Source: Folioceros fuciformis
Taxonomy: Eukaryota
Direction: 5' to 3'
Assembly (NCBI GenBank): GCA_049999805.1
Contig: JBNGIO010005918.1
Span: 140,357 to 197,139 of the forward strand
DNA length: 56,783 bases
Position numbers and translations under genes: made by a program. Below the pieces are notes generated by a model. That model had not been told where the DNA came from. It saw only the letters and a list, made by a program, of their open reading frames with translations, and did not search any database. Positions 7,904 to 43,885 of the stretch are shown here, in pieces (positions within the stretch are counted from its first letter, which is position 1; each line of letters opens with the position of its first letter).

Positions 7904-9939
7904 CTACGAAGATTTTGGCCGTTTTTTCATGGGGACAATCATATCATCCCTTCTCTCCTCATTTTCTCTTGCAATATTTGGCTCAAAGTCATCTTGATCA
8001 TATGCCCGTCTTCCCGGCGAAGCCAAGTTTGAGAATATCTCAAAATGATCTGGCTTCCATGGCTCATCACCAGGCTGTTCCTCCAGTCCCTTTCCGCTCT
8101 CATGACCTTTAGTGTTCACTCTCTCCTTTCCTTTCTCCTTGGTCTTCTTCTTTGCATGGCCTTAAGATTAACCGAGTTTGAGCATATCCAGAGGTGCAAT
8201 GTTCCCATGCACCATTTGTAGTGTTTGAGCTCTTTGTCTGACCGACCTTCCGCTTGCAACCTCGAGGGCAAAGAATAAAGAGTGACCCCAAGTATGCAGC
8301 TTGGTCCTCAACTCCTCCTCGTTCGATGGAAACACTTTGTGCCTAGTTAGTCTTTGCTTCATGAAGATCGTATGCCACTGCTCTAGGTCGATGGCAATAC
8401 AATCGCAGCCTTCCAAAAGTGCAGCAAGCACTTCGCTTCCGCTTTCGAAACACCCATTTATCACCCATTCTCCTCTGTCGCTAAAGAGCCCGAATATGAG
8501 CACCATTAAACCAAGCGGCTTTTGATATGGATTAACAACTTGTTTATCATGGGACACGTTCAATAGTTCCTTGATGATGGTGCTATACTTGATGATCCCA
8601 AGCATCACTTCAATGTCTTTGGCCGCACTATTGCTCAGAGCACTGCTTTTCCGAATATCTTCATTCATTAGATGGACACCATAATCAACAGTCATAAATT
8701 CGCAATTTTTGTATAGCCCCTCGTCTATGATGACATTGTCTTTCTCCCACACCATTGTATAGATGCCCTCCTTCGTACATCACTTTCAGAGCCTATCTCT
8801 CATGAAATGCATCTAGTTCGGCCCATGGATGCATACTACCCGAAAGGTTTGACTTTCAATAACTTCAAAAAATCCTTCCATTATTTTTTCCAAGTCTACC
8901 GCAGAAAGCTCCTTTTCCAATGCTTCATTGTAGTTTCCCCGTGGCAAATCCAAGATGAGCAATTTGTATTCACGCTTGCCCAAGTAGCTTTCCATTTCTC
9001 AGAAATCACTAGTAATCACCTAGTACTTCACTTTCTGCTTGCTGCTCGAGACTTCAAATGTTGATAATTTGGCATAGTTGTCCTCCTCCGCTAGATTGTG
9101 TTGAAGATCTTCGACTCATTTCCAGTTCCTCATTGAGTGTATATGCTCTTTGAAGCTATAGAGGATTATCTTCTCTTTGTACTTCTTGGCTTGTTTCATG
9201 GTCTACATACCAAGAAATGAACATTTTAGATCTCAGCATGCAAATAGCGCGCTCATTTGTGTGTGCCACTAATGGACATCAGCAAGTTGCAGAAAACCCT
9301 ACTTACAATGTAATAAAAAAACGGGCTGGAATTTAGCAATGTCCTTGGGTGTCGAATGCTTGGGGTACTCTTCCTCCACTTCTACAAAAGATGGACAATG
9401 CAACCTTAAACAAAACGTGGTCTGAATGATATTTAACTTCTTCGCTTTTATTATCTAGGTCTTCATCCCACTATGAGTAAGATCTCTCTGGACAACTTTT
9501 TCCAGAGCAAACATCTTGATACGATCCCCTACTTCTCCAAGTGGCATACCCTAGAAAACTCTCCATGCAGTAGTATGCATAGGTTTTATGATGAAGTTAG
9601 GGTTACAGATTGATGGCTCCGCATATACAATTGTTCTCTAGGATTTGCCTTGTTTGCTAAGCAGCCTTCTTCCTGTTTCCTTGATCTAGAAGTTTCCCTC
9701 TTTCCCACAAGTAGAAAACCCCATCCACCCTTTCCCAAACGTGGGGTTACACACTTCTAATACAGAGTATAGCTATCTTTTGGTCTATTAGCCATTGCTT
9801 CTCATCTCTATCACTTGCGTCTCCGATTACCCCCAGCATTCTATACAAGTCATACTTCCATGTCATTGTTATTGGCACTCCTTACTCGCCTACAATTTTT
9901 CAGCCTACGATAACTTACCAAGGTAGCATAAAGAGCTAC
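7904..9939 (-). pseudogene. 5'-truncated pseudogene of an N4/N6 DNA-methyltransferase-like gene (copy 1)
   Basis: LLILDLPRG (motif IV-like, 8950-8939), MVWEKDN..CEF, NPYQKPLGLM, GEWVINGCFESGS, CIAIDLE in beta-class order; several stops and frameshifts; aligns along its length with 26088-28700; 3' end approximate. Confidence 0.7.
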
Positions 9940-10085: not shown

Positions 10086-10278
10086 TGAGTATAATGTTTA
10101 ACAGCACAACACAACACAATGAGATACGAATTGTTATTAATCACAACTATTCTAAGCCTTCACAACCCTACCCAAATATAATAATAGTCTAACTTGAAAA
10201 AGTTTGTTGCCTACTTTTTTTTTCAAGTTTAGACACATATTAGTAATGTATACCAATAATTAGATTGGCAAGGAGCCT

Positions 10279-11789: not shown

Positions 11790-12440
11790 AACCATGATAA
11801 GGACACTAGGGGCTAACCCCCTGAAGTCTAATGACTACAAATAGCACCTAAAACACCATGGTTTGGGAGGATAAAGGGTCTACCTACCACTCGAGTTGGT
11901 AATGCTATCTCTCCTACCAACGTTGTCCTCCGGCATATGGCATTACCCAACTCCCGCTCAAGAGCAATGGAAACCCCTTGCCAAGAAGATGCTATAATAC
12001 ACAAAAGAGGAAGACCAAGCTTATATTTCTGGTTATAAACCGTCTTGGTACAAGACTTCGAAAACGTAGAACCCTTATATATAATGGCCTCCGATCCTAT
12101 TGTTTGTCAACACTGGTGCAGGAAGAACTTATGTGCAAGAGCAACTTATTAGCCTAGCAATTTAACTTTACTAACTACTCATGTGATATGACCTGGTAGT
12201 TCGATTTATAGCCTTTGTTTCATATGTGTTTAAATGCACACCACTTGTGTGTAGAAATATTTATCTTCTTCCAATGAATTTATCATTCAACTTGCACTCA
12301 AATTAATTGGGAGGTGTCAACTCTAGTGGTTGTGGTAGGTAGACCCATGATATCTTGGGTGGTGCTAGTAGTTTTTAGGCTTAGCGGCTTTCGGGCTAGC
12401 TCCCTCACTCACTGGTTAGGATAGATGGTTTCCCATCTTT
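11790..12440. mobile_element. Degenerate foldback/MITE-like element with long imperfect inverted repeats
   Basis: GGTCTACCTACCAC (11877-11890) is the reverse complement of GTGGTAGGTAGACC (12332-12345); the flanking 60-100 bp also pair imperfectly; no TSD identified, ends approximate. Confidence 0.45.
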
Positions 12441-12804
12441 TCTTTTCTCAAGAAAAACAGTGCTCCAATTACGAGTTTGTATAAATTTCAATCTATTTAT
12501 TTTAAAATATTTATTTTTTAAATATATTTTATTGTTATTATTGCACTCTAAACATCACTCTTGCACAAATCATGTTTTATCTAGAACGCCCTCCCGGCCC
12601 TAGGGAGCTCTGTGTCCTCTTCCCAGGGGCGAGGAAAGAACTCCCACAAGTCCGAGTCTACGTCCAAGCTTGTGCACTTGTATCGTTCCGATACAGCCTG
12701 CGCTCATCTTCCCTCGTCAGTATTTATTAAAGCTGGTCCTTCTCTGTACATACCGAAATCTCAATACACGAACGACTGCTCGGGTGTTTACGGCAGCGGG
12801 AGCC

Positions 12805-19000: not shown

Positions 19001-19179
19001 AAGCTCTTGCCTACCCCCAATTGCATAGCACTCGTCTCAAGCTCTACCTACGCCTTCATGCCAATGCCTTACATTCCAAACCTGCGAAGTTTGTTTTAAA
19101 TGATGATATTTGTTGCATTAGTAAACAACTACCATCAGCCCAAAAAACTTATGGGCATAACATGGAAAGTATGACGGTT

Positions 19180-21060: not shown

Positions 21061-21365
21061 GAGAGTTGCGGATCTGACTCAAATGAAATCTGACCTTCAA
21101 TTCCAGGCTAGCTCCTTGTCCCTCTTCCTTGTGCAGCAGGTGTATTCTCCCGTTGCAACCTTCTGGCAACTCTCTGCAACCTCTCTGCTATCTGGCATTG
21201 CCGCTTTGCCAAAGGCACTTTTGCACAATCAGGCTTAGAGTTGCTGGTCTTCACCCGAGGCATCCATCAACCTATCACTACCTAGACTCTCTATTCATGC
21301 TACTCTATCTAGACTCTCTATTCAGGGATTGGTTACTCCTACCTACGTTCTTGACAACAATACAT

Positions 21366-21383
21366 TCCCCAGCAACAGCGCCA
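21366..21383 (-). promoter_or_regulatory. Primer binding site complementary to the tRNA-Asp 3' end
   Basis: TGGCGCTGTTGCTGGGGA, 3 nt after an LTR end ..CCACA; differs from TGGCGCCGTTGCCGGGGA (Athila-type PBS) by two CpG-type transitions. Confidence 0.85.
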
Positions 21384-21386
21384 AAA

Positions 21387-23242
21387 TGTGGAGTAAAATG
21401 TTGTGTCCGGGGACATCACGAGGCCCACACAAACTCTCTATGTCGTTGTAGCCATGGGATTCGATCCCAAGGGAACGATTTGTGCCAAGTAACACAAGTC
21501 TCTTCTACTACTGGCTCTTGCCTAGGTCAGACCTTATCCCCTACCGCTTCTACTACCTGCTGGCTCCCTACCACTACCCCCAGTTAGCCTAGCTACTGCG
21601 GACCCTACTCTACGACTCTAGTCCCTACTCTACGACCGCGGTTGTGGTCTTCGCGACCACTAGTAGCATCCACGACCGGTAGTGGGTTTCACGACCACAG
21701 TGGGTCCCACCCAGAACCTAACTAATATTTTTTGGCTCAGGTGCCGTCGTGGGTTTCCACACGGGTTTCTACTCTAGGGGTTTCCAGACTCACAGGTCGG
21801 GCTTATTAGGGCTCTCCATTCAGGCAGGGGCTAATCTTTCAGGGTCAAATCCCCGCAGGCCACTACACCTCCTCTCACACCTATGTACGCATACACACAA
21901 ACACACACACACACACACACCAGGGTTCTAGCGAACACCCGTTCCTCACAGGTCCGTCCCCAAACCTCTCCAATCCTCTAACAATGTCCACCAATCTCCA
22001 AAAATTTCCCAGCAATCAGCCACAATCTTCCACAGCCTAAACGTTTCTTTCACAACATCCCAAAATCTCTCAACTCACTCTTCTGTATTCGCAAATCAGG
22101 GAATCAGGGAGGGAGGAATTCTCCCTCCACTCTGCGCAGCAGGCGGATTCGTTCCCCTCTCCTCGACTCACGGCCAGAAGACCTTCCTCTCACACACTCA
22201 CTCCTTCACCCTCCTTCTCCTTACACATGCTCTTCTTCACACTCGCTTCTCACACACACTCTCTTCTTCAACCTCGCTTCTTACACACTTCTCACAGCAT
22301 ATTGTAAATGCAACCAAAGGATCAGAGAATAAGGGAAGGGGGAGATCCCCTTCCACTCTGTGCACTGGCAGATTCGTTTCCATTGCCTCAGCTATAGTCC
22401 ACAGGCAGTTGTTTAGGGAATAAGGGAAGGAGTAGCTCTCTTCCACTCTACGCGACAAGTAGATTCGTCCCCATTACTCCACACCGTGGATCACAACGAA
22501 TAACTTGGGGGATAGAGGAAGGTGACCTTCCACTGAGCAGAGGTTCCACTGATTCGTCTCCCTCACCACCCGTTGTGGAGCAAGAACTCTCGGCTTTCCC
22601 TCCGGGGTGTCGCGCCTGCACAGCCCACCCACACCTCCCTTGTCTTAGACATGGACAGCACGAGGACCTTACTGGGAGCGGGTCACCGATTGTTTGCTGA
22701 TTAGCGAGGCGCCAACAAGCCTCTTTGTACACCCTCATCAGGCGGGATCATTGCCGCCATAAAGTTTGGTCTCCGGCAGTCAAGCGCTCTTAATTACGAG
22801 TGGTACCAAGTCCAAGAAAGCATCTCCATCAGATCTTAACTAAATATTATTCTAAGATGCAATGAATTCTGGCCTATCCTACTACCGCGCTCGCTTTCTA
22901 CTCGGTCTCGGTGCACTCCTGCCCTGGCCACCAAATCCCCGCGCCCTCTCTTTCTCGTCGCTGGTCAGGCAAGTCCTCGCATAAAACCTCTACCTTGCTC
23001 CTGCTGGCGCCTGACTTCTCTTGTTGAGATACGGGAGGGGCCCATCGTGGAGTCCTTTCTTCATCACCCGGCAGCCTATTGCTGAGAACCATCACGGGTT
23101 CTTGCTCCACCCATGCTTGCACTTCCTCCTCCGTCAATTCCTCTAGGACTGCCTCCAAATAATAAGGGGGCAGTCCCCACACCCGAAAGTAGTGGGAGAA
23201 GCATCCCCCGCGAGTCCTCAGTTGTAGGCAGTAAGCCCTGGT
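21387..23242 (-). repeat. Gypsy LTR-containing repeat, copy A (LTR 3' end at 21387; LTR 5' boundary not determined)
   Basis: Starts TGTGGAGTAAAATGTTGTGTCC on + as does 29690; patchy homology with 29690-31472 up to ..GCCCTGGT; includes a (CA)n run near 21892-21920. Confidence 0.75.
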
Positions 23243-25379
23243 CCCTCCTATTTCCACACGCACATGGATAGTCAGATTAAGCACATGGTCCCCATTCACA
23301 TAGAGGCCAAGAACATAAGTTTCCTCATCCAGATGCTGTAATACAATCTGGCCTCATGTTGCAGATGAGGTGCTTACCCCCTCCTCCCATGGGCTACCTC
23401 GAACTGCCTGTCTTCTGCTCTCCAGGGGTATTGGAAAATCTTTTGCCCCTCTAGTCGCCACTGCTGTCAGTCCCGTCCTTCTGGCGCGGGTTGGCATCCC
23501 CACTCTCCCGGTCGCTGGCTCCACGACCGTTGTTGCTTCCTCTACCCCGATAGGGCTGTCCTCTATCAACGTGGATTCCCTCTGACCGGTAGACTACCTC
23601 GGTCGCGGACTGGTTGTTCCATCTAGCCTTCCCTTTCCCTTTTACCCTCCGGGCCTCATCTCGTTCCCGTTTATACCGGTCCGCTAGCTTCTGGACCTTC
23701 TCCACTACAGCTGCCTCCTACTCCTGTGCCCTCAACAACTCCTGTTGCATCTCCTGGTTAGCCTTGTAGACCTCCTTGACTTGGGTTAAAAGCAGCTCCT
23801 GCTGATCCTTCATGGCTTGCATTTCTTCCCAAGCCCTGCGTATTTCCTCCTGTACTTGTTCCTTTGCTTCACACAGGGCTTGCTGAGCTTCCTCTAGTTG
23901 TCTCTACCTTGCTTCTACTTTAGTCAGTTTGGCTTGCACTTCTTCCTTCTTCCCCTGCATGCTCAGCCAGGTCAGCGCCTGTGCAGCTTGGTCCAACATG
24001 TCTGCCTATGCCCGAACTTTGGCCGCTATTAGCCCTGGCAAATCCACCTGTTGGGGTGCATCTCCAATAGCCATTCCTCTGTCCAGGATTCCCCTTCCCA
24101 GCAGTGTGCACACCCTGGTCAGATCCTCCTCCTGCAATCTCGCCACTAAGGGAGTGGCCCTGAAAAGCTCCTCCCACCCCGGAAAGTGCTCTTCCCCCAG
24201 GGTCAGCCCTAATTTCCCTACCACTGCATCCGGTTTCAATTCTTCTGTTGGCGATGATTCCCTAGTTCGGCTGACGATGTACCTATCTGTCCATCGCTTA
24301 ATTTTCGGGTCAAATCTTGCGGCGAAGAATCCCTGGTTCGGCTGAAGATGTACTTGTCTGTCCATCGCTTAATTTTTGGGTCAAATCTTGAGGCGCTGAA
24401 TCCCCTGCCACCCTAGTGGTACACCTACTGACCTTTCTCCTTTTCGCAGGGGTCTTCTGCCCGGCCCTTGCCTTCCTCTTCCTGCCAACGTTAGCCTCCT
24501 CACCTGAACTCCCTGTTGCTCCCGACTCCTAGCTGTTGGACTCGGCCTCCTCCTCGGTTTCCTCGCCTTCCACAAGTGCAATGAGGCCACTACCTCTATT
24601 TCTGGTAGACTGTTAGCATGGCAAGGCAAATGAACAAGGAAGGGGGAGATCAGAGATAGACGGGGTGTTGGTGAAGCCAGGTTATGTCTCTCTTCGTTCA
24701 GTCGATCGAAGATAATTTTCCCATAGTTGATTCGGCTCCCCTTGACCACTTCGTGCAGGAATAGCAGCATGTGGTCCGACAAATAATCCTGCTTCCTGTT
24801 TTGCAAAAAGCACAAAAGCCACCTGGCCAAGCCCATGAGCTGGGCAGTTGCCATCTCCCGCGCCAACCACCCATTAGCCTCCCTTCTGATTCCGGTCTTG
24901 AACAGCACTGCTGCTGCTGCTGTGGTGCTGCGCTTCCTTAGGGACTCGATTACGAGTCCCCCAGCTTCCTCTTGGCTTCGCCCATATACCGTTCTGACCA
25001 GCTCGACATCCAAGTCCTGGGGTCTATCCTTGGCCCCTTCCCCTTTGATCCTGTTCCATAACTGGTGCGCACACTCCTGCACCGAAACGGGGGTCACATG
25101 GTTCCACCTCTTGGTCATGAACCCGAGGCCTAGCTCTTCTACCAGCCCTCCGGCTCTGGCCTTCCAATGGTCCATATTGGGCTAGAGAGCCACCTCCACT
25201 TGAGGCACTGGCTTCAGAGCTGCATCTCTGGAGGTTGCCGCCGGCGCCGAGTCCTCAATCGCTCTCTCCATCAAGCTATGCTCCGGCGCCGCTGTCTTCC
25301 CTAGTACCCATGTGCTCCGCTCCTCTTTAGGTTCGCCCCAGCAACCACGGCGCTTAGGTTCTACCTCCGCCTCGTTCAC
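22898..25379 (-). pseudogene. Decayed LTR-retrotransposon accessory ORF (globular N-terminal domain plus coiled coil)
   Basis: Fragmented minus-strand ORFs (KGSRINYGKIIFDRL..ISPFLVHL; E/Q/K-rich coiled coil about 23590-24000); about 70 bp internal tandem duplication at 24276-24405; tail shared with 31111-31472. Confidence 0.6.
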
Positions 25380-26087
25380 TCGCTTACACCTTACGTCCTG
25401 CCCGCCACGTTTGCTCCTCGACTGTGCTCCCGCTGTGGTTGCACTCTACATCGAAAATACTTCAGATCCCTCACGTCCCGCCTTAGGGTTTCTATTCGTC
25501 CGCGATGCTTTGGCTCCATCACCATGCCGAGATTCCGCTACCGGTTCCGACTTCCACGACGGCGACTCGTCGTCCCCAACCGTCGCTGAGTCACAACTTT
25601 CCTTTTTTTCCACCTAAGTCCCCAACTTGTTTTTCCCCCGCAAGTTACTCCCTATTCTATAAATGTAGGGGGGGGTCCCTATGTAGGCTTTCTAGAATTT
25701 ACCCGAACACCAAGACCCAAGGACCAAGCAGCACTTGTCCCGACCCATCTCCTAGTCCAGTTATTGACCTATCTCAAAACGCCAAGACCCAAGGAGGTCT
25801 TGTGCATATATACCCCTCCCTATTCCCAACTTAAGCCGCTTTCGCATCCGTCTTGTCAAAAAACAAAAAAAACACCAAGTCTTACACTTGGCAAAGGGAT
25901 GTTTAAACATTTTTCCATCTACAGGTGGGTACATACATTTTTATTAATCGCATTCGAGAATGTCTTTCAATGTACAAATTTATGGGCATAGACCTCAACA
26001 TCTACCCAAAGAAGCATACACTCTACGGCTACTCTAGTCCATGGGATGATCTTCTACTGCCTCAAAGTCAAACACAATGGCCACATT

Positions 26088-28700
26088 CTACAATCGCGCT
26101 GCATCTTGAAGATCAAAGTTGTCCACTTTCTCGAGTGCCTTGTCCTCCCTTTGCCCATCTCCATCATCCTCGTTGTTCGATGTTGGCCCCTCCCACACCC
26201 TATCCAGAGTTTGCTGTCCCAACATCACTGTCGGGCTCGTCTTGCGGCTCCTCCTCTTTGATGTCAGAGAGACAACCTGTGCTCGAGAGCAGTGCTTCTC
26301 GCTGATGCATACCCCCTTCGCCCAATATTGTGATGGTCCTCTCGGTAGCAGATCCAACGTTAGCTCCTCCACTGCATTGGGGAGCACTTCACAACCATGG
26401 ACTCGCTGGTCAATGTATGTTGTGCATCATCTGTCCCCTTCGATGGCCACGCAATTTCTTTTAGCTAGCAACAATGTCAGCAGTGTTGTCCTGTTGTGGG
26501 AACACACATCCACGACCCACTCACCCTCTTTATTGAAGTTGCAAATTAGCTTGTCCATTAACCCCAAAGATCTTTGATATGGGCACACAACCCGTTTGTC
26601 ATGGGAAAGGTACATATGTTTCTTCACAACCGTATCATGTGCAATAATAGATCTTCCATTGCTGAAGATAGCACCCTTTTGCCTTGGCATCATCGACGTG
26701 CGTTGCTCCCCTCCTTCTGAGACCATTCGATAGTAATGTACTCGACGAATTCAAAGCCTCTACGGTCATTGGACATATTTGTCTTATCCCAAACAAATGA
26801 AATGAACCCACCTCCTTTGCACCACTTCACTCCTTTTCATGGCCTCCCCAACAGTGTGTGCATCTTCTACACCATGCATGACCACCAATCGAAAATCTTT
26901 GTTTGTTGTCTTCTTGGCAAAGCTGGCAAATACATTTTGCATAATGCTTCCATCCAAGCAACCATCCATGGGACCAATTTCAAACCCGTGAGGAACATCC
27001 ATCAGCAACAACCCATAGTTTTGTTGGCACATATATCCCCTCATGTCTTGTACAGTCTGTGCCTCAACCATATACTGCACTTGCATATCTGTCGAAGGCA
27101 CGTTAAAATTGAACAAGCCGTCATGCAAGTCCTTATCGGCGATGGCCCTTTACTCGTTGTCTAAGCCCTTCCAGCTGTTCACTTCAAAAATGAAGACCTG
27201 AAACTCTTTGAGGAGCTTTGTTAGGTTCTCCACATCCTTTAATTGTTGGAAACATATTCAAGACAAAACCTTTGTTAGACATGAGTGACATGTCCACCAC
27301 TAGGAGTGCCCTCAATGACTCTTTGCCCTGGAGAGCGCCAGCTAGCCGGTGCCCTCCATGCCTGATGAAAAAGACAAAAAGGCAAATGCATAGTTTTGCT
27401 TGAAATAGACAAGATTTCTTACCTTCCCTGCGAACACTGTTTGAAACTTCGTGAGCATGGCATCAGTCAAGTGTTGCGGATACTCGTTTCGCACCTCATC
27501 AAATGAAGAACAACCAAGGTGCTTTGCCATCGCCACCTGGATACTATGGAACTTCTTCCTTAGGCATATGTCATCATCCATGCCTTTAAGGTCCAGCAAC
27601 CCAGCTAGAACCTTCTCTGTTGCCGATATGCGGATTTGCTAGCCACACTCCCCTGCTGGAGTACCCTGGAACGACTACCATGGCTTTGCGAGCATGTCCT
27701 TCGGCCTCACGTACCCAGCATCAGCCTTTTTTGCATCATCATATGCTTTGCGCTTGCCTTTTCCTTTCTTATTCATGCCTATTATTGTATGTTTCCACTA
27801 CTCCGACAATTCACAAGCTTCCCATTTGCTGAATATCTTATCTATATGTTCCCACACCTTCCCTTCTTACTTGGCTATGCAAACTATGTTTGTCCGATTA
27901 TCCACCTTTGTCTACTCGTACACATCATCTGCTTGACCCTGGTCATTCTCGATTAGCCCCAAGACCTTGTACAAGTTGAACTTCCATGCCATGGTCATGT
28001 GCACACCATCTCTTTTGGCTATAATAAGCTCATCTCTCAGATACAGTGCTTGCTCGATGAACGACATTTTCCTCCTTCTATTCAACATAATATTGTGGTC
28101 CGTTGCAAGCACTTACATCTCCTGCAGCATAACTCCACAGTACACATGGGCTTCAACATATTGAAACCGTTTTTTTCCTAGTGAGATCTCCGCCAAGTGC
28201 TTCATAGTAGCAAATGTGTGATTCCCCCCGAGAACACCCATAACGTACTAATGCCCCCAAAACTTCACCAGATTTAGTTCCTTCAAAGTCGCACACTCAG
28301 GCGGGTCTATCATGCATAACAAAGGTATCACTCCCTCTTCGATGCACCCTTTCGCTATCACCTTGCAAGATAGTTTGTCCAAGCCTCATCCACTTTTCTT
28401 GTTTGGGCATCCTATGTGAGGTACGCTATGGGCCTGAAGTTCTCCAACTTCACCCACATAGTTTCTGGGACTACCTTCTTCTCATACACGCATTCTCGTA
28501 AACGAGTAAGCAGATCTTGTTCTCATTTGGCTTCCTCTAAGTGCTCCTCATCTGTAAACACGTGTACTGTTGTTATGGCCTCTAAGGAGCGAGGGCCCCC
28601 ACTCCCACTTCGTCCCTTTGTTTTCTTTTGGTTGATTCCATCTTCTTTGGTTTTGGCATCCCGTTGCACTCTACCCCTTCATTTCCCTCCTATTTGTTCC
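26088..28700 (-). pseudogene. ParB-like plus N4/N6 DNA-methyltransferase-like fusion pseudogene (copy 2)
   Basis: PLLCMIDP..VLGGNHTFATM..AHVYCG..LATDHN (GGNH at 28229-28218); LLLMDVPHG (DVPH at 26999-26988); FVWDKTN..VEY; CPYQRSLGLM..EGEWVVDVCS..KRNCVAIE; stops and frameshifts; ends approximate, gap at 28748. Confidence 0.75.
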
Positions 28701-28979
28701 ATGCTCGCATGTGTATGTGCATCAAATCCCTCGGATTGCCCCGGGATNNNNNNNNNNNNNNNNNNNNNNNNNNNNNNNNNNNNNNNNNNNNNNNNNNNNN
28801 NNNNNNNNNNNNNNNNNNNNNNNNNNNNNNNNNNNNNNNNNNNNNNNAGCCAGCACCCAGCCCCCTCACCCTGGTCCCGGAATTGGACAAACTAGTTCGG
28901 GTCTGGGGTCTCCAAATGTTGGAACCCTGCCTCGTGCCCGTGGGCACCGGCTGGCCGGCACCCATGCTGTATCTCTAGC

Positions 28980-29680
28980 TCGTAGCAAACTATGGGGACT
29001 TCAACAGATGCCCCCATCTTGGGGTAGTCAGCAAACAATTCTCGATTCGGAATATCTTCCCCGGAAGCTTGCCCATCATCCTTTGTTTTTGAGTGCCCGA
29101 GCATGATTGGAATCGGGCCATGATTCTCATCTAAAGGTTCCATCTTGCTCTCTAGCTCGCTTACCACCTCCTCTGCCACACCTTGGGCCTGTAGGATTGA
29201 TCTATGGACTGCCATAGCTCTTCTATGGCCCTGCATTGTTTGTGTGATTTTGGTGCACAAGCATTAGATCCATGCATTTCCCTGGCTAATACCCTGCAAG
29301 AGAGGGGAAGCCATGTTACCACTATAACCTCCCACACCTCATAAAGCCATACAAAAATTGTCACTTGTAGTCTTCTCTTGTCTGCACTGGATGAACATAT
29401 CCACAATACATTCGAGCTGGCACTTGCATATGATCATGCCATTGAAGGCAACACAAAATAGCTAGTACCTCTCGACCTTTGTATCCAATTCGGTGAACTG
29501 GAAAGGCTTCGTAGAACATAGAAGGCAACCCTCTAGATCTCTTATTGCGTTCATCTCCAAATTGCCCCAAATCAACCAGCCAGCTCTAGCTTGTTGGGTT
29601 GGATAGGCACCTTTAATCCTCATGACAAAAAGCTTGTAAAGGGGAGTCCATAATTCCCCATCATCCTCCGATTCCTCCTC
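28980..29680 (-). pseudogene. Decayed ORF of unknown family (Cys/His-containing), probably TE-borne
   Basis: Overlapping minus-strand ORF fragments (ILCCLQWHDH..MYCG; CTKITQTMQGHRR..PIVCYEL); cut at 29690 by the gypsy repeat; no family recognised. Confidence 0.3.
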
Positions 29681-29689
29681 CTACACAAG

Positions 29690-31472
29690 TGTGGAGTAAA
29701 ATGTTGTGTCCAGAGACACTGCGAGGTCCACACTTACCCTCTATGTCATTGATTTGCTCCCAAGGGAATGATTTGTGCCAAGTAACACAGGCTTCTACTA
29801 CTACCCGCTCTTGACTAGGTTGGGTCTACTCCCTACCATCACTACTACCTACTCGTTCAACTACTACCATCCCCGGTGGACCAACTACCCTGCACCCTGT
29901 TCGACGAGCCTGGTTCCTACTCCGCGACCGTAGTTTAGGACTCCTCTACCAGTAGTGACCCCCACGACCGTGGTGGGTCCCACCCCAAACCCTAACTAAC
30001 GAGTTCTGGCGCTTGCGCCCCAGCGGGATTCTGCCCCGGGTGATTGTTTCTAGCTCCTGACTCACACATCTAATCTTATCGGTCGCGATTCACGCATGTG
30101 GTAACCAACTTCACGCCAATTGATCGCCGCGGGCCACCCACACTTTCTCACAATCGCGGGCATTAACCACCCACGCACATACACAAACACAATTTTGTTA
30201 CACTATTGTTTCCGGATTCCAAGCACTCTCACTTCCCCAAGTGACAGACACAAACCCTCCACAATCTCTCAGCCTACTTCACACCATCGTCCCTTGTCCT
30301 CACAATCTCAAGCGGCTTCTCACAACCATTCCGAGTTACTTACAGAACCTTCAACCATTCAGTACCCCATAGCTCACGCAATTCTCCGGTTAGTTCAATT
30401 AGCTTCTTGCATCCGTTCCAAATCACCCGCCACATGCAGCGCCGCATGAGGCGTTAGCCGTGCTTTTCTCTCTTTTTCCTTCTCCTCTCAACTCCTTCAC
30501 TCCTTCACTCACTCAACTCACTCGCTCTCAACTCAACCTCGAGGTGGGTTTTGGAACGCAGCAATTAGCTAGGGGAATAGGGAAGGAGAATTCCTCCCGT
30601 GCCGTGGTTCTCGCGGATTTGTCCCCCTCACTACCCGCCATAGAATAGTGTGTTAGGCTCCCTCCAGGAGCGTCTCGTGCGTGCTACCCTCCTCAGCAAC
30701 TCGGGGATCTCAACCGAAAGACAGGCCTGCACACACACATGCTCAAATTCCCAGCAAGACAGATGACTCGGGGAATAGTGAAGGGAAAATCCCTCCGCGC
30801 TACGGTTCTTGTGGATTCGTCCCCCTTGCCATCGACCATGGAGCAATGCTCACAACTCTCCTTAGGAGCTTCTCGCGCACACTACCCTCCTGGTAGTGCG
30901 GGGATTTCGACCCGGGAGTGTCTCCAACATTTGCTGATTAGAGAGACCCAACAGGCCTCTTTGTACAACGCATCCAAATCGGGGGAGCAGCCCACCATTA
31001 AGTCTAGTGTAAGTAGTCAAGTGCTCTTAATTGTGAGCGGCATCAGGTCCAAGAAAGCATCTTCACCAAATCTTAGCTAAACACTATTTTAAGATAAATT
31101 CTTGCCTATCTTAACACCGCGCTCGCCTCCTATCCAGCCTTCGCGTTCTCCTTCCTCGGCCGCTAAATCCCTGGGCTCTCCTCCCTCTCTGCTGGTCAGG
31201 CAAGTCCTCCCATAAAACCTCCACCTCACTCTCACTGCCGCTTGACTTCTCCTGTTTAGGCATGGGTGGGTCCACTAGGGGGTTCTCCCTGCTCCTTCTG
31301 ATCATCTGTTGCTGAGGATCATTATAGGTTCTTGCTCCACCTAGGCCTGTGCTTCCTCTTTGGTGAGCTCCTTCAACACCGCCTCCCAGTAACAGGGAGT
31401 CAACCCCCATACCCAAAAGCAATGGGAGAAGCATCCCCTACGGATCCTCAGTTGCCGAAAGTAGGCCCTGGT
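29690..31472 (-). repeat. Gypsy LTR-containing repeat, copy B (no PBS: 3' or solo LTR end), truncated by the copia element
   Basis: Homologous to 21387-23242; homology stops exactly at the copia TG at 31473. Confidence 0.75.
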
Positions 31473-31761
31473 TGTAGGGTTATTAAAGCCCAATGTGCTT
31501 AGACTAATGTGTTTAGTCTAAGATTAGTGTCTAGTTAAGTACCATTAGTTTAGATTAGCTTAAGCTAATCTGTAGGAAGTTCTTGCGCAGCTTCCTGTGC
31601 GCTTCTTGTGAAGCTTCCTAGGGAGCTCTTCTAGAGGGTATAAATACACCTATAGCTCCCTTGCTATTGAGACTCTATGTGAGAGTGTGACCTCTCTTTC
31701 TCCTCTCCTCCTTGCCTCCTCCTCTCCTCCTTCACCATGTAGCTCCTATAGCGGTCCTACA
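31473..31761 (+). repeat. Copia 5' LTR
   Basis: TGTAGGGTTATT..GGTCCTACA, direct repeat of 36095-36380. Confidence 0.9.
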
Positions 31762-32623
31762 AGTGGTATCAAAGCAGGTGCGGAGCAAGATTGGTGATGG
31801 CTCTAGGTGATGGTTGCAAGTGCTCCATGAGGAAGGCTTCAGAGTGAGACAGCAAGCGGGAGCAGTGTTCGACATCCCGAGAAGCGTGGAGTGCCAAGAG
31901 CGAGGGTGTCGGGAGCGCGGGGCAACGAGAGGGTGTTGCCGCACCGCGAGGGGCTTCTGCCCTAGGGCGCCATCCACACCAGGCTCCATATCCGGAGCGC
32001 GGGGTGCAAGGGGGACGAGGGCGCCGCACAAGGGCGCCACCAAGTGCCCAGACCGCGAGGCAGCTCAGCCTGCGGGCCCCCCTTTTGGCGCAAGGCAGCT
32101 CAGGCTACGGGGGCACAAGGCCCCCGTGGGCTCTCAGCCCCCTGCCAGGGGCACCGGCGCCGGCCCCGGGACAGGGCGTCGCTGGGGTGCGGCCAGGCAG
32201 CGCCAGCGGGCGTTGACCCGGCCGGCAAACACTAGACCCGGCTGGACGTTGGGGCCAGGGCGCTTTCGGACGTGGGGTGCCAGGGAGCGCCATTACGCGG
32301 GCCAGCGGAAGTAGAGGTGCGAGTGACGCAAGCGATGCGAGTGCGAATGACGCCGAGGCGCGGGCGAGAGTGACTTCGTGGACGCCGGATCGCAGTTGCC
32401 GGGGCGCCAAAGCCGAGAGTGAGGGCAAGGGCGCGAAATCGATCCCGCCCGCGAGGCGGAATCAGATCTCAATCGGAGGATTTAGGCCCAACGTGTCGAC
32501 CTAAATTGTGGACAGACGAATCGGAATGAGGGTAACAAAATCTTCATTACATTCCGACAGTTTCTAACTAGCCTTTTGGTTGATTTGCATCGATTTTGAA
32601 ACATTACATCCTCAGAAAACGTC

Positions 32624-35600
32624 ATGTTCAATATCGAGAAGTTAGATGGTACTAACTTCCCTTTATGGAAAGAACAAGTGTATAATGTTCTAGTACAGAA
32701 GAAGCAGATCAAGCCCATCAAGCTGCTAAGAGTGAAACCTGTAAGCATGACTCAGGATGAGTGGCAAGATCTAGATGAGCTTGCTAGATCTACCATCATG
32801 CTAACATTGTCGAAGTCGGTCTACTTCAACGTGAAATACAAGACCACAAGTTTCGAGCTATGGCAGAAGTTGTGTGACCTTTATGAGAAGCAAAGAGCGG
32901 CTTCTCAGGTCTATTGGTTGAAACAACCGGTGGACTTGAAGATGAAGGAAGGGATGAGGATGTCCGATCATTTGAATGAGTTCAATACCATTTTCAGCCA
33001 GCTCTCAGCTCAAGGTATCTCGTTCCCAGATTCTGTGAGAACTATGTTTCTGTTGGTCACATTACCAGAGAGCTGGGACACCTTTCGTACAGTTCTGAGT
33101 AATTCCGCTCCTGCCAGTGGTCTTACCGTTGTAAATGTGGAAGGTAGCATGTTAACAAAGGAGGTGAACAGGAAGAATATGGAACCTTCGAAAGGTTTCA
33201 ATGCCCTCATGGTGAGAGGAAGGTCCACTTCAAAGGGGAACTACAAGGAGCGAAGTCTTTCCCGTAGCAAATCTTGTAGTCGTAACAATGTTGAGTGTTA
33301 CCATTGTCACAAGAAGGGTCACATCAGAAGGGACTGCGAGAAGTTCAAGAAGGACAAAGAAAAGGAGAAGAAGCAGAGCGACAACAAGGCAAGTCCGAGG
33401 GTCAAGCGTGACAAGGTGAACTCTGTTGATGATGGAGATGTTCTTACCTCTTCTTTCTTCGATCATGCACAACTGACAGCCGTGGAGAGTCACTTACTTC
33501 GTGTGTGAGCACTGTTTGTATGGGAAACAAACAAAGTCACCACATGGAGCAAGAGGTAAACACAAAAGTAAACCTCTTGAGTTGGTACACAGTGACGTTT
33601 GTGGACCTATGTCCACTGTATCATTAGGCAATGCACCCTATTTAGTCACTTTCATAGATGATTTCTCACGCAAGGTGTGGGTTTATCCTTTGAGGAAAAA
33701 GGATGATGTTCTGACAGTGTTTCAGAAATTCGTCACCCTTGTGGAGAATCAGTCTGGCCTCCGACTAAAGTGTCTAAGGACAGACAATGGGGGAGAGTAT
33801 GTTTCGAAGGCTTTCCAGTCATTCTATAATTCCAAGGGAATCAAGAGAGAATTGACTGCGCCGTATACTCCTCCCCAAAATGGTGTGGTTGAACGGATGA
33901 ACAGGACCATCCAGGAGAGGATGCGTAGTTTGTTGTCAAACTCTAGATTGCCTAACAGATTTTGGGCAGAAGCAGTGGTTACTGCAGTGCATCTTATTAA
34001 CAGATCTCCTAATAGGGTTGTGGATGAGCAAGTTCCAGAGGAAATGTGGTCTGGGAAGAAGCCGTCTTACAAGCATCTATGAGTGTTTGGCTGCGAGGCA
34101 TACTACCATGTTCCGAAGGAGTTTCGGGACAAGTTGGCTTCTAAGTCAAGAAAATGTATTTTTCTTGGCTATGGTGAATCTGGTGAGATAGGATACCGTC
34201 TGTGGGATCCAGAGGCCAAGAGGATGGTTCGTAGCGATGACGTGTTCGTCAATGAGACCAAGATGCACAAGAAGCCTACTCCAACTATGGAGGTGCGATG
34301 AGTGGCTTTCCAAGAAGATTGATTTGACAGTCCCGCGCAAGTTGAACGTCGTGATGTGTAGGAACAAGTTCCTCCACTTGTAGAAGAGGAGAGAGTGCAA
34401 CCAGCTCCGGTCGAGGCGCCAGTGCTTCGTAAGTCTGGAAGGATTTCACGTCCTCCTTATAGGTATGTTGCATCTCTTGGTTATGTCATGCTGACAGATT
34501 GTGGGGAGCCCTCTTGTTATCAAGAGGCCATGTCAGTGACTGACAAGGACAAGTGGGAGAAGGCGATGCAGTCGCAGATGGATTCGCTCCATAAGAACCA
34601 AACGTGGGAGTTGGTTTGGTTGCCTAGGGGCAAGAAGGTGTTGCCATGCAAATGGGTGTATAAGATGAAGGACATACCCGATTATGGCAAACCCAAGTAC
34701 AAGGCATGATTGGTTGCTAAGGGTTTTAAGCAATAGCAAGGTATTGACTTTGATAAGATTTTCTCACCAGTTGTCAAAATGACCACTTTGCGCTGTGATT
34801 TTGGTCTGGTTGTGAGGAATGACATGGAACTTGTCCGGATGGATGTGAAGTCGGCATTTTTGCATGGTGATCTCTAGGAAGAGGTATACATGTAGCAACC
34901 AGAGGGTTTCATTGAGAAAGGCAAAGAGAATATGGTGTGCAGGTTAAAGAAGAGCCTCTATAGTTTGAAACAGGCACCCAAGGAGTGGTATTACAAGTTC
35001 CACTCATTTATGCTTTCTCAAGGCTACAAGCGTAGCGATGAGGATCATTGGCTCTATACAAAGCAAGCTAAGGATGGAAGCTTGCTCATTCTGGTCCTAT
35101 ATGTGGATGATATGCTAATTGCTGGGAATAGCAGTGATGAGATTTCAATCTTGAATTCAAAGTTGAATGCTCGCTTTGACATGACAGACTCGGGAGAGAC
35201 AAGCCATATTCTTGGCATGCGTATTCATGGAGACAGAAGTGTTTGCTTTACTTGTCTCAGATTGAATACATTAACAAGGTGCTTCAACGTTTCAACATGG
35301 AGAAGAGGAAGATATTAAGTACTTCGTTGCCTCCATATGTGAAACTTTCAAGCAAGGATTGCCCAAGCTCTGCGGAGGACAAAGCTAAAATGGAGAAGGT
35401 TCCATACTCATCAGATGTAGAGAGTTTGATGTATGCAATGATTGCTACACATCCTAACATTGCCTTTGAAGTGAGAATGGTTAGCAGGTTTATGTCAAAC
35501 CCTGGCAGGAAGCATTGGGAGGCAGTGAAAGGAGTTATGAGGTACTTGAATGGTACGAAAGCTTTGTGCTTATGTTTTGGTAGTGAAGATGCATCTGTTG

Positions 35601-36052
35601 TGGGATATACGGATGCTGATTATGTAGGGGATATGGACAAAAGGAGGTCCACATCAGGTTATGTCTTCATGTGCACTGGAGGGGTAGTCTCATGGCGATC
35701 TCGTTTGCAATCGTGCATAATGCTATCTACCACAGAGACCAAGTATGTTGCAGCGACTGAGGCTTGCAAGGAAGCCATGTGGCTTGCTTTAGTGGAAGAC
35801 TTGGGGATCAAGGTTGAGATGCTAGTGTTGCATTGTGATAGCCAGAGTGCTATCCAATGGGCAAAGAATCCAATGTTTCATGCGAAGACCAAACATGTGG
35901 AAGTGAAGTATTACTTCATTTGAGAGGTGTTGGAAGACAAGAGGGTACAGCTTATCAAAGTTCACACCAGTCAGAACCCTGCAGATATTCTTACCAAGGG
36001 GCTCTTTACGGAGAAATTCGCACAAGCTCGGACACTCATGGGCATGAGGTAG
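32624..36052 (+). pseudogene. Copia gag-pol pseudogene
   Basis: EKLDGTNFPLWK, CYHCHKKGHIRRDC, integrase VHSDVCGP/LRTDNGGEY/QNGVVERMNRT, RT YVDD, RNase H YTDADY; multiple stops and frameshifts; protease region missing. Confidence 0.93.
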
Positions 36053-36094
36053 ACCACTCTCCTATGAAGGTAAATTGGCCTTTAAGTGGGAGGT

Positions 36095-36380
36095 TGTAAG
36101 GTTATTAAAACCCAATGTGCTTAGACTAATGTGTTTAGTCTAAGATTAGTATCAAGTTAAGTATCATTTATTTAGATTAACTTAATCTAATCTTTAGGAA
36201 GGTTCTTGCTCAGCTTCCTGTACGCTTCTTGTAAAGCTTCCTTGGAAGCTCTTCTAGAGGGTATAAATACCCTCTTGAGCTCCCTTGCGGCACAGAGTGT
36301 GAGACCTCTCTTTCTCCTCTCCTCCTTCATCATGTAGCTCCCCTCCTCCTTCATCATGTGGCTCCCCTAGCGATCCTTCA
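36095..36380 (+). repeat. Copia 3' LTR
   Basis: TGTAAGGTTATT..GATCCTTCA, directly after the PPT. Confidence 0.9.
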
Positions 36381-41839: not shown

Positions 41840-43190
41840 TTATCCTTTTCTCCTACTAACGTGTGCCACAAGGACTCTACATTGTTCTTCACTACATGCA
41901 TAACATCTTTTAGCGCCCATTTCAACATATTCTGCCGATGGGTTAAGTATTGAAATCATGCGCTTTCTGTCTTGTCCCAAACTGGCCTCTCTCGCACAAA
42001 TCCCAAGTGGACACCTCCATGAGTTGTGCAAAAGTTGGAGGCTGGGTTCGTGGTCGCCGCTCAATCTCATTGTTATACCGTCCCTTATATAGTTGCCTCC
42101 CAACATGGTGAGGGGGGAGGCATCTCCGTGCCCCAAGATACTCTTCCTTCTTGAAGTGTTGGGCCCAGCAGGAATCCAAACCCTCCTTGCAATCTAAGCA
42201 TGCTTGATTGCCCTTCTTTTGGAATCCAATGAGCGTCCCAAGGCCTCGTTAGTCTGCAGTAATGTTCAACATAGGAGGCCGAAATATAAAATGCCGCTAA
42301 GGGTTGTCCATGGGCAACGAGTAATCTTCCATTTGGAAACCATGCCACAATTCCTGCAAGTCCTCCAAAAGTGGTGCTAGGTAGACATCAAAGTTTGGAA
42401 CAATGTGCAGGCCCGACATAGTTATTGGCATGATGATGTTTGTGGCCTTCTTGCTTACCCAAGGGGGGAGGTTATGCACAAATAGCATTATATGCCAAAT
42501 TGAAGCTATGGTGGACAAATGCCCAAATGGGTTAAATCCATCAGATGCCAATCCCAGCCAAACGTTCCTTCCCTCTATGCCCATTATCAATACTGTCTAA
42601 GTGTGCCCACGATGGTGTGTTTGCCATTGTGGACATTGAGCCATCTGTGCTCCGGCTCTCCATGTATGTTGTCATGAGCTTGGCCATCGTGGGTGCCCAG
42701 AACATCCGACGCAAGCGGTCCTTGAACGAGAAGTGCCACATTGCCTTTGGAGGTGCTTTTCTACTCCCATTTGGTAGGCCAGTCCCTTGAACATAGCGGT
42801 TCGCATTGCACTTGACATAGGCTTCGTCGTCCTTGTGAGGGCTGTGGAATAAGAGGCAATCATTGATGCATGCATGGATTTTCATAAATCGAGGCCCGAA
42901 CAACAATTGTGATTTCTTTGCCTCCTCAATGCTTGATGGGAAATAGGTGGTGCATGAGAGCACGTGCTACACGATGGTTTGGAAAATCGCTAGCATGGCG
43001 GCGTTCGAGATTCCGTACTCAGATTGCAATGACAGGAGTAAGAGTGTTGCTTTCATGTGACACTCCGTACAAGTCTTTGTGGTTGTCACCATCCATAAGG
43101 GAGCGAGGTCATCTGCATTCACATCCTCTATTTGAAGTGGTGCGTCCCTTAGCCCCAGTAACAGGGGAGGGTTGTCATGCAACATAGCAT
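41840..43190 (-). mobile_element. CACTA/En-Spm TNP2-like (Transposase_21) transposase remnant
   Basis: KIHACINDCLLF, CNANRY, PKAMWHFSFKDRLRRMF, RNVWLGLASDGFNPFG, NLPPW, FDVYLAPLLEDLQELW; frameshifted and 3'-truncated; no CACTA TIR found. Confidence 0.9.
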
Positions 43191-43511
43191 TACCATTTGT
43201 TCAATTAGCGAATGTTGGTAGGCTACTTAAGTTGCCCACTTGTGCGGGGTCTAGAGTACCAGGCAAGTGATGTCTGGTTGGATATGAAACCCAACATCAT
43301 TCACAACATTTGAAGAAGACGCCATTGCGCTTAAAGCCTGGTGGGTGTGAGTGGATATGGATGTTGGCCACTCAGCTATGTGTGAAGCTCCTTCATTTGA
43401 ACATCTTCAGCCCCCTAAAATGACAAGGATAGGAATGTCAACGGATGAAGGCATGGTGCAAATGTAAGCACAAGAAAGACTTCCACCACATTCTTCTCAT
43501 CCTTCTTGTCT

Positions 43512-43885
43512 AAGATTCCATCTATAATGTCCAAATACTATTGCTTAGAATGACCTCANNNNNNNNNNAAGATTCCATCTATAATGTCCAAATACTATTG
43601 CTTAGAATGACCTCATCACATATCCCACCGAAGATTCCAACTATAATGTCCAAATACTATTGCTTAGAATGACCTCATCACATATCCCACCGAAGATTCC
43701 ATCTATGAGTACATCATCACTAACTCTGCTAGATGACAAAGCGATGTCATGTGTGATTCCCAAATACTATTGCTTGAGATGTACCTAATCACATATCCCA
43801 TCCAAGATTCCATATGTGATGCCCATATATTATGGCCTAGAATCACCTCATCACAAATCCTATCTAAGATTCCAAGTGTGAGTTC
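43512..43885. repeat. Tandem repeat, about 62 bp unit, several decaying copies, spans a 10-N gap
   Basis: AAGATTCCATCTATAATGTCCAAATACTATTGCTTAGAATGACCTCATCACATATCCCACCG repeated. Confidence 0.85.

Follow-up and report, generated by a model that had tools for sequence, protein, structure and literature searches.

Fusions of a ParBc domain with an N6_N4_Mtase domain are a common bacterial architecture, and amino-methyltransferases canonically carry a motif IV of the form (D/N/S)-P-P-(Y/F/W). It is still open, and disputed, whether land plants possess a dedicated DNA adenine methyltransferase. Here we describe two broken copies of a gene of this general type in a 56,783-nt stretch of Folioceros fuciformis DNA (GenBank assembly GCA_049999805.1, contig JBNGIO010005918.1, positions 140,357 to 197,139 of the forward strand), referred to below as the window. 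An initial annotation, made from the sequence of the window alone, had read them as a ParB-like domain fused to a beta-class DNA methyltransferase and carried by a mobile element. We consider it probable that both copies (copy 1 and copy 2) decayed independently and are pseudogenes belonging to a eukaryotic family that joins a ParB/sulfiredoxin (Srx)-like domain, a ParB-type helical domain and a beta-class methyltransferase of the CcrM/RsrI type.

Closest described systems

The catalytic half of this family is best compared with the N6-adenine enzymes CcrM, M.BceJIV, M.RsrI, M.MboIIA and M1.HpyAVI (PF01555), with which it appears to share the fold and the same circular motif order, motif IV preceding motif I. 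The family profile matches their whole catalytic domain, including the motif IV strand, and motif IV starts with Asp in both. The two differ in the residues that follow, D-[A/I/L/V]-P-[Y/H/R]-G in the family and D-P-P-Y/F in the N6-adenine enzymes, and also in setting: the family is eukaryotic, has introns, and carries an N-terminal ParB-like module and an acidic tail. In the tree it makes up a clade that excludes the 22 prokaryotic rows sampled, and the window copies additionally lack the S-adenosylmethionine (SAM) loop. The catalytic half probably descends from beta-class adenine methyltransferases and would work like them, while departing from their P-P-[Y/F/W].

Prokaryotic and phage ParB–methyltransferase fusions show the same domain pair in the same order, and the N-domain model has a protein named ‘DNA methylase’ from Mycobacterium phage Vincenzo among its structural matches. 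An earlier survey describes the methylases found at ParB–terminase loci (PMC4738411). Between the two halves, the plant family has a helical domain and a linker, about 200 residues in all, that set it apart from the prokaryotic fusions, and its N-domain is without detectable sequence likeness to the ParB models of Pfam, PHROGs and PADLOC. A search of genome contigs with a profile from an 8-row alignment retrieved only distant stand-alone prokaryotic enzymes (80 loci); the seven longest-matching open reading frames (ORFs) are stand-alone DPPY/DPPF enzymes, and the plant-type N-domain was present in none of the 80 loci.

Among eukaryotes, bdelloid rotifer N4CMT, which carries a chromodomain where the present family has a ParB-like partner, and Marchantia MpDN4MT1a/b are likewise bacterial-type beta-class amino-methyltransferases, acquired horizontally. 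The fold match to rotifer N4CMT is strong (4.6e-11). In sequence, the family profile matches N4-methylcytosine (4mC) enzymes more weakly and in the C-terminal part only, and the family has Asp in place of the Ser of their S-P-P-Y type motif, which in Marchantia is given as TSPPY (bioRxiv 10.1101/2021.02.12.428880). Three homology searches with family sequences returned no Marchantia protein among their hits; the family is therefore not of the DN4MT1 lineage. A kinship with the 4mC enzymes of Marchantia and rotifers, which the initial annotation had cited, is accordingly not supported, and the family is not of the rotifer N4CMT lineage either: the residue is Asp and not Ser, and the full-domain profile match is to N6-adenine enzymes instead.

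Also comparable are the eukaryotic adenine-methylase lineages that, as described by Iyer et al. (2015, PMC4738411), come from or are fused to ParB-associated prokaryotic systems: ‘ParB-HTH + Dam’ fusions of chlorophytes and chytrids (HTH, helix–turn–helix), and a haptophyte clade derived from the methylases of ParB–terminase loci. By that account, the chlorophyte enzymes are methylases of another group (M.EcoKI/TaqI-Dam type) whose only fusion partner is a ParB-type HTH, and the partner in the haptophyte clade is an FHA domain. The survey reports few N6A-methylases in land plants, and its main text lists no such land-plant clade; the land plants it sampled were only Arabidopsis and Physcomitrella (PMC4738411).

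Our own literature search returned no description of a plant ParB–methyltransferase family, which thus seems to be undescribed. The best hits, moreover, contained no characterised plant host gene family, one of the outcomes that the initial annotation had named as refuting it.

Two decayed copies in the window

Copy 1 lies on the minus strand (28385→26121) as the remnant of one collinear reading frame of nearly full length (Table 1). All nine motif strings quoted in the initial annotation are present, all on the minus strand and in the beta-class order of motif IV, then W.K.N, then QKP, then motif I. A single-frame read-through from 28742 to 26121 keeps every quoted motif in frame except the VWDK piece; the VWDKTN segment stands in another frame, with a frameshift on either side. 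Homology to relatives (numbered with the prefix P) runs along the whole remnant: in tblastn, residues 266-434 of P0044 match 28331→27807 (E 1.9e-17) and residues 13-397 of P0004 match 27248→26121 (E 1.8e-25), while P0008 matches collinearly with residues 139-320 at 28235→27663 and residues 334-590 at 27101→26361. The linker of copy 1 is uninterrupted, and relatives have an exon end nearby.

Copy 2, also on the minus strand (9918→8171), is 5'-truncated and about 42% identical to copy 1 in amino acids. It was first located by tblastn of seven copy 1 pieces against the window (~9881→8387, 41-50% identity), and residues 27-317 of P0004 match it at 9157→8309 with E 6.9e-30. Its motifs read LLILDLPRG, VWEKD, NPYQKP, GEWVINGCFESGSE and CDCIAID. 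Because tblastx likeness between the copies is restricted to 28044→26265 and 9918→8213 and stops there, copy 2 is without the ParB core and its 5' end lies in tandem repeats. No third locus emerged when all six-frame pieces of the window were searched with the family profiles.

Both copies are pseudogenes unable to make protein, and activity is excluded for these two. Copy 1 holds 17 stops in the single-frame read-through and at least 13 on the homology path, in addition to its two frameshifts; in copy 2, whose 5' part is gone, six internal stops interrupt the stretch from 9157 to 8171. The SAM loop is ruined in each, reading C-S-H-N-R-T-T in copy 1 and C-F-E-S-G-S-E in copy 2, where the family motif I is F/C-x-G-S/T-G-T/S-T and most relatives keep x-G-S/T-G-T/S-T; the pattern F-x-G-x-G occurs in neither copy. 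The QKP motif of copy 1 reads Q-R-S against NPYQKP in the family. The initial annotation had already called both copies dead and noted a D-x-P-[H/R]-G motif, and both statements are confirmed, motif IV being D-V-P-H-G in copy 1 and D-L-P-R-G in copy 2.

Contigs built from short reads, taken from two DNA runs of one sample that may be the assembly's own source, show no differences from copy 1 over 26088-26528, 26664-26879, 26859-27305, 27276-27460 and 27810-27987. No indels are listed, and the frameshift zone is therefore no assembly slip, with the reservation that the runs may be the source of the assembly. Additional contigs from the window's own genome reach 90-95% identity over conserved patches, and depth peaks rise to ~8x baseline, which indicates further copies in the same genome. 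A related copy (~91% identical) in the read contigs of the two DNA runs is without 128 nt (26706-26833), which coincide exactly with the stretch that the two frameshifts of copy 1 enclose. We rejected the two frameshifts as short introns, because the shifted segment aligns to the family unbroken, and likewise the 128-nt skip as an intron, which occurs in DNA runs and ends GG..AG.

The methyltransferase half

With the 203-aa piece of copy 2 as query, 34 relatives were found at E ≤ 0.001 (best 8e-14) in a set of 1.84 billion representative proteins. The PF01555 gathering score was passed by all ten relatives tested (30-66 bits against a cut-off of 26.7), and by three further relatives. Hidden Markov models (HMMs) of the family were built from 32 N-domain and 33 methyltransferase relatives. 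The methyltransferase HMM matched window pieces at 8171-8779 (E 1.4e-35), 26430-26750 (E 4e-20) and 26787-27149 (E 1e-5), and since these matches, made with profiles of relatives, fall in collinear profile order, the likeness is far beyond chance.

Against the PDB, the family profile matched CcrM (6e-24), M1.HpyAVI (6e-23), M.BceJIV (1e-22), MboIIA (1e-19) and RsrI (1e-17) over nearly the whole domain, and N4-cytosine enzymes over the C-terminal part only (7e-12; PvuII 6e-5). By profile, the methyltransferase half thus appears closest to the N6-adenine enzymes CcrM, M.BceJIV and RsrI, and not to 4mC enzymes. The window copies are too broken for modelling; an AlphaFold (AF2) model of the relative P0046 (pLDDT, the predicted local distance difference test, 75.8; predicted TM-score 0.72) predicts a Rossmann-type beta-class fold for this half, with Foldseek matches to CcrM (2e-14), RsrI (4e-11), rotifer N4CMT (4.6e-11) and PvuII (7e-11). 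For the C-terminal half, the matches in PHROGs and PADLOC were to generic methylases, and PD-lambda-5 was not among them. A urea-transporter match in a phmmer search of the 203-aa piece against the PDB (E 0.38) was discarded as spurious.

In motif IV the family departs from described enzymes. Relatives read D-I-P-Y, D-A-P-Y, D-I-P-H or D-L-P-R, and all 15 clade rows that show the motif have D-[A/I/L/V/F]-P-[Y/H/R/E], never D-P-P-Y/F: 14 plant-type rows have D-[A/I/L]-P-[Y/H/R], and the sea-star protein has D-F-P-E. Given that motif IV begins with Asp and that the profile favours N6-adenine enzymes, adenine-N6 is the likelier target of intact members, which should be taken as a hint. With the first Pro lost in those plant-type members that show the motif, and Tyr changed to His or Arg in many, any activity or substrate assigned to intact members is conjectural.

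The family C-terminus is an acidic tail, and its last residues are alike across the distant members P0046, P0009, P0006, P0016 and P0008 (tail ends …DDLNAMLLD, …EEDLNELLLD, …DFDKWLND, …EEMNALLTE and …EQGLLDYIDK). The likeness of these ends suggests a short interaction motif.

The ParB-like half

For the N-terminal half, the family HMM matched copy 1 at 27915-28112 (E 7e-4) and 27801-27866 (E 1.5e-4). An AF2 model of the relative P0077, to whose type of ParB-like region copy 1 is homologous (tblastn E 1.9e-17), has residues 140-445 mostly confident and residues 1-136 disordered. All 12 PDB matches of this model at E ≤ 0.001 are ParB or Noc, with ~290 columns aligned that span the N-domain and the helical DNA-binding domain; KorB, PadC and sulfiredoxin come after them. 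In a viral structure library, phage ParB/Spo0J ranks on top (4.4e-5), and a phage ‘DNA methylase’ and a giant-virus ParB/Srx protein also match. On the P0077 model, the N-terminal half is predicted to be a ParB/Srx fold followed by a ParB-type helical domain. The fusion proposed in the initial annotation, a ParB/Srx-like domain with a beta-class N6_N4 methyltransferase, is in this way borne out by the profiles and by the modelled folds of relatives, the structure search that it had suggested having returned CcrM-type and ParB/Noc folds.

Nucleotide-binding signatures are G-E-R-R-x-R-A in ParB and G-G-C-H-R in Srx. The family core reads V-[IL]-G-G-[SNC]-H-S-x-E-A-R-R, with G and H invariant, and copy 1 has G-G-N-H-T. 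The arginines of the cytidine triphosphate-binding G-E-R-R of ParB are not kept, and the G…H core resembles the G-G-C-H-R of Srx more than the G-E-R-R of ParB. The G-G-[S/N/C]-H core aside, human and Arabidopsis sulfiredoxin are structural matches (root-mean-square deviation 3.5-4.2 Å over ~108-117 columns), weaker (E 0.046-0.3) than ParB/Noc; a ParB-type helical domain follows the core in the family, whereas sulfiredoxin is without one.

Relatives in other genomes

Named relatives come from Ginkgo (five gene models), Adiantum nelumboides (six proteins), Ceratopteris richardii (KP509_1Z236600) and Calypogeia fissa (one); the sea star Patiria miniata has the methyltransferase half only (P0024, XP_038062583.1, ‘DNA methylase N-4/N-6 domain-containing protein’). 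No flowering plant was found among the named hits, 20 of the 34 relatives of the 203-aa piece having been checked for host. Identity is 73-92% within the Ceratopteris group, 41-47% between that group and Ginkgo, and 35% to the liverwort. Ginkgo and Adiantum have several copies and many broken gene models.

A scan of metagenome contigs yielded ten loci, on five of which (L081, L082, L086, L089 and L090) a ParB exon is followed by methyltransferase exons on the same strand. Methyltransferase exons are ~25-70 nt apart, a gap of 250-940 nt follows the ParB exon, and DNA homology between contigs continues through these gaps; given this continuity and the common strand, the fusion is a real multi-exon gene. 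The contigs that carry it are AT-rich (30-36% GC) and plant-like as judged by eye. Relatives are under purifying selection, with dN/dS of the ParB exon between 0.26 and 0.62 in all 20 computable pairs. Intact relatives in ferns, Ginkgo, a liverwort and the plant-like contigs look functional. On the longest relative contig, L086, the gene has one in-frame stop.

Of the 55 rows in the tree, 30 were selected family proteins and three were genes from contigs; two rows were the pieces from the window, and the other 20 were prokaryotic loci taken from the 80 with a motif scan. Thirty of the 55 rows, including both window copies, fall behind one long branch (SH-aLRT, the Shimodaira–Hasegawa-like approximate likelihood-ratio test, 99), and all 20 prokaryotic ORFs and two bacterial proteins fall outside this clade. 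Copy 2 joins the D-L-P-R-G subgroup with support 82.

Several results weigh against this interpretation of the window copies and their family. By themselves, the window pieces fail in Pfam: the best PF01555 match, copy 1 at 26427-26750, scores 13.9 bits (E 0.053) against the gathering cut-off, and the remaining six copy 1 pieces and four copy 2 pieces have no Pfam match; nothing significant was found in NCBIfam. The ParB family was not detected by sequence in Pfam, for window pieces and six N-domain relatives, nor in NCBIfam, PHROGs, PADLOC or a PDB profile search, and Pfam DUF6551 appeared in three Ginkgo models at E 0.019-0.032, below its cut-off. The profile comparison proposed in the initial annotation thus came out for the relatives, which pass PF01555, and failed for the window pieces and for every ParB model. 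The ParB-likeness rests on a relative's predicted structure with a mean pLDDT of 66.9 and modest TM-scores (0.37-0.51), and the fold search fails to separate N6-adenine from N4-cytosine enzymes. Without the canonical P-P-[Y/F/W], the family might be catalytically altered or inactive. The ‘plant’ label comes from a named minority of relatives, copy 1 sits at the clade's base without a resolved position, and the sea-star P0024 falls inside an otherwise plant-type clade, on a long branch and with a degenerate motif IV. The phylogenetic comparison that had been suggested did give one clade, and its separation from prokaryotic enzymes is shown against this sample of 20 motif-picked loci of 80.

Origin and possible role

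Could the gene be the cargo of a specific transposable element, either as the internal part of an old long terminal repeat (LTR) element running from repeat R2 to repeat R1 or as a CACTA passenger, spreading with it and perhaps blunting host silencing? We find this doubtful. Copy 1 lies between two same-sense repeats of 1.8-1.9 kb that are 72% identical, and R1 is preceded by a purine run and followed by a primer-binding-site (PBS)-like TGGCGC and a gag remnant; yet no PBS follows R2, the regions after R2 and R1 are unlike, repeat homology does not resume past the Copia insert, and no target-site duplication could be defined, on which grounds an R2…R1 LTR element around copy 1 is doubtful. The tnp2 remnant (43200→41840) shares the strand of copy 1 and, read along the minus strand, precedes it by 13 kb, but no CACTA-type terminal inverted repeat (TIR) pair with a target duplication was found, only 15-of-20 pairs at chance level. 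A 266-aa downstream ORF faintly matches a ‘plant transposon protein’ family (E 0.031) and the GC skew of the 18-32 kb block is one-sided, whereas ORFs of at least 75 aa between 10 and 32 kb include no reverse transcriptase (RT), integrase or transposase family. The several copies and many broken models in Ginkgo and Adiantum, the copies in this genome and the sea-star relative inside the clade would suit a spreading element; the introns of the relatives argue against retroelement-encoded genes, and copies 1 and 2 share nothing outside the ORF. Homology among the relative contigs is confined to the gene, except for ~630 nt upstream common to L081 and L084. L089 has only one other ORF of at least 90 aa in the 1.1 kb upstream and 3 kb downstream of the gene, and, judged by eye, neither L086 nor L089 has a linked transposase, L086 being flanked only by apparently unrelated fragments of a long interspersed nuclear element (LINE) and of gypsy. 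The initial annotation's view of the gene as mobile-element cargo was therefore not shown to hold, there being nothing common to the two copies outside the ORF and no transposase, TIR or target-site duplication tied to the gene in the window. Of the intact copies and element ends it had called for, fusion genes were found on relatives' contigs and no element ends were found. Transposon remnants abound around copy 1, yet none could be linked to the gene, whose status as cargo is a possibility only.

It strikes us as unlikely that non-flowering land plants simply inherit the gene vertically as one of their own, for instance as a DNA methyltransferase of germline or sperm chromatin comparable to Marchantia DN4MT1, and that the window holds two dead duplicates of it. 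Introns and purifying selection in the relatives fit it, as does identity that drops roughly in step with plant relationships (73-92%, 41-47%, 35%), but the many paralogues and fragments per genome do not. Plant hosts known by name comprise a liverwort, ferns and Ginkgo; that flowering plants are missing from the named hits has a weak foundation, with 20 of 34 hits checked for host. There is a Marchantia precedent for a bacterial-type amino-methyltransferase acting in sperm, as presented in a preprint (bioRxiv 10.1101/2021.02.12.428880), against which stand the lack of Marchantia proteins among the homology search hits and a motif IV that differs from TSPPY. Still further from our expectation, and very improbable, is the idea that the copies are left over from a large DNA virus or virophage-like element that carried a ParB–methyltransferase gene and became endogenised. 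ParB/Srx proteins of Orpheovirus, CroV, Faunusvirus and Gaeavirus are among the structural matches, with phage ParB and not giant-virus ParB at the top of the list, and ParB-linked methyltransferases are described as typical of phage packaging loci (PMC4738411); Pfam scans of ORFs found no other virus-like family in the window, and the relatives have introns and long-term purifying selection in plant-like contigs.

Returning to a eukaryotic ParB–methyltransferase family with two dead members in the window, an intact member would have, in its N-terminal part, a ParB/sulfiredoxin-like domain that bears a G-G-[S/N/C]-H motif, then a helical domain resembling the one with which ParB binds DNA, and finally a CcrM/RsrI-type beta-class amino-methyltransferase followed by an acidic tail. 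Its ParB-like module may bind nucleotide and DNA and so deliver the methyltransferase to DNA, and the window copies would be relics among transposon debris. A bolder version of this picture, which we offer tentatively as a possibility, is that non-flowering land plants keep a selected, intron-bearing family in which a nucleotide-gated ParB/Srx-like module is joined to a CcrM-like methyltransferase with D-x-P-[Y/H/R]-G. Its intact members might then be active writers of N6-methyladenine (or 4mC) that load on DNA and perhaps spread along it in the manner of ParB, serving a germline role in swimming-sperm plants or acting as a selfish anti-silencing device, and the window copies would be fossils of two old subfamilies. 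If so, Ceratopteris KP509_1Z236600 and Ginkgo Gb_37443, for example, are candidate genes for expression and knockout, and the family would be a third independent bacterial-type amino-methyltransferase settled in a eukaryote, after rotifer N4CMT and Marchantia DN4MT1. To our knowledge, a ParB-like partner domain has not previously been tied to eukaryotic chromatin. As the window holds two dead copies only, its own biological weight is small; its value lies in pointing to a family worth testing as a candidate plant DNA amino-methyltransferase.

Features and surroundings of the window

Table 1. Positions of the two gene copies and of neighbouring features in the window; the last row refers to a relative's contig
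Feature	Position	Strand	Evidence or remark
Copy 1, start of ParB-like domain (…VIPLLCMIDP…)	28251..28385	-	ORF; N-domain profile positions 270-289; blastp to Ceratopteris P0067 E 2e-5
Copy 1, ParB/Srx-like core, G-G-N-H motif (VLGGNHTFATM; also AHVYCG)	28116..28247	-	Profile positions 300-338; blastp E 8.6e-5; within P0044 tblastn match
Copy 1, end of ParB-like domain (LATDHN) and start of helical HTH-like domain	27915..28112	-	N-domain profile E 7e-4, positions 341-398; blastp
Copy 1, helical domain remnant (KVWEHIDKIFSKWE)	27801..27866	-	N-domain profile E 1.5e-4, positions 419-437
Copy 1, linker (FHSIQVAMAKHLG…), conserved with Ginkgo and Ceratopteris	27345..27638	-	blastp P0067 E 1.3e-6, P0041 E 7e-6
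Copy 1, methyltransferase N-terminal half, LLLMDVPHG (motif IV M-D-V-P-H-G)	26787..27149	-	Methyltransferase profile positions 7-68, E 1e-5
Copy 1, VWDKTN segment, shifted frame	26693..26836	-	Aligns to family C-x-G-…-[VI]W-x-K-x-N block; profile on piece alone E 0.83
Copy 1, methyltransferase C-terminal half: CPYQRS, EGEWVVDVCSHNRTT including degenerate motif I, RNCVAIE	26430..26750	-	Profile E 4e-20; PF01555 E 0.053
Copy 1, C-terminal tail remnant past internal stop (…YIDQRVHGCEVLPNAVEEL…)	26121..26426	-	tblastn match to P0004 extends to 26121
Copy 2, helical and linker remnants, ParB core missing	9302..9918	-	tblastx against copy 1; profile 9660-9746 E 0.024; blastp 9302-9454 to P0067 E 9e-5
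Copy 2, region upstream of methyltransferase (SFKEHI…) and motif IV L-D-L-P-R-G	8816..9157	-	Profile E 2.7e-4
Copy 2, 203-aa open piece: VWEKD, NPYQKP, degenerate motif I (CFESGSE), CDCIAID	8171..8779	-	Profile E 1.4e-35; 34 relatives, best E 8e-14
Tandem repeats, spacing ~81 nt, adjoining truncated 5' end of copy 2	9940-10565		
Repeat R2, LTR-like, just upstream of copy 1 in minus-strand sense	29687..31472	-	72% identical to R1 by BLAST
Repeat R1, LTR-like	21384..23242	-	Preceded by purine run; then PBS-like TGGCGC… and gag remnant (minus-strand reading)
gag remnant, CCHC knuckle (CSTCGQQGHSRASC)	21107→19216	-	Directly after R1 and PBS-like TGGCGCTGTTGC
266-aa open frame downstream of copy 1	24384..25181	-	PF20167 ‘putative plant transposon protein’ only, E 0.031, 14.6 bits against cut-off 45
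Two 71-nt tandem units just downstream of the 266-aa ORF	24250-24391		89% identical
Copia-type LTR retrotransposon, inserted at R2 edge	31470..36380	+	Retrotran_gag_2 1.3e-30, rve 1.3e-17; LTRs 31470-31761 / 36092-36380, 83% identical
Decayed CACTA/En-Spm (tnp2) transposase remnant, several frames	41840..43200	-	PF02992 in two ORFs, best E 3.8e-24; element ends not found
Four 62-nt tandem units	43512-43865		
Xyloglucan fucosyltransferase, 562 aa	2459-4147	-	PF03254 1.1e-93
Na/Ca exchanger-family long open frame	4912-6294	-	PF01699 4.1e-48
COG6 (Golgi complex subunit) gene between the two copies	COG6_N 12604-13122, more ORFs 13-20 kb	+	Five ORFs in 10-32 kb match COG6_C, best E 8.8e-29
Flanks of the gene on relative contig L086, read by eye: gypsy-type gag/protease/RT fragment and LINE-like fragments	6000-7947 and 595-2557 (of L086)	- and +	

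Along the minus strand beyond the gag remnant, towards lower coordinates, neither pol nor a second LTR was found. From 18000 to 32000, GC skew is steadily negative (-0.1 to -0.24) and AT skew is negative as well, with a flip of sign at ~32 kb where the plus-strand Copia element starts; the 18-32 kb block looks wholly minus-sense. The remnant at 41840..43200 was placed by DGFNPF…NLPPW strings, which we take to be typical of tnp2. An inverted AT-rich repeat pair (11828-12071 and 48799-49275, 72-77% identical, 37 kb apart) was considered as element termini and rejected, as it looks like two copies of a small repeat. Among ORFs of at least 95 aa in 36300-56783 or 1-8100, one matches Bromodomain (3.3e-15) and one DUF7877 (0.0032). 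The fucosyltransferase is closest to liverwort proteins, with 52% identity to Marchantia, 49% to Calypogeia and 47% to Riccia.

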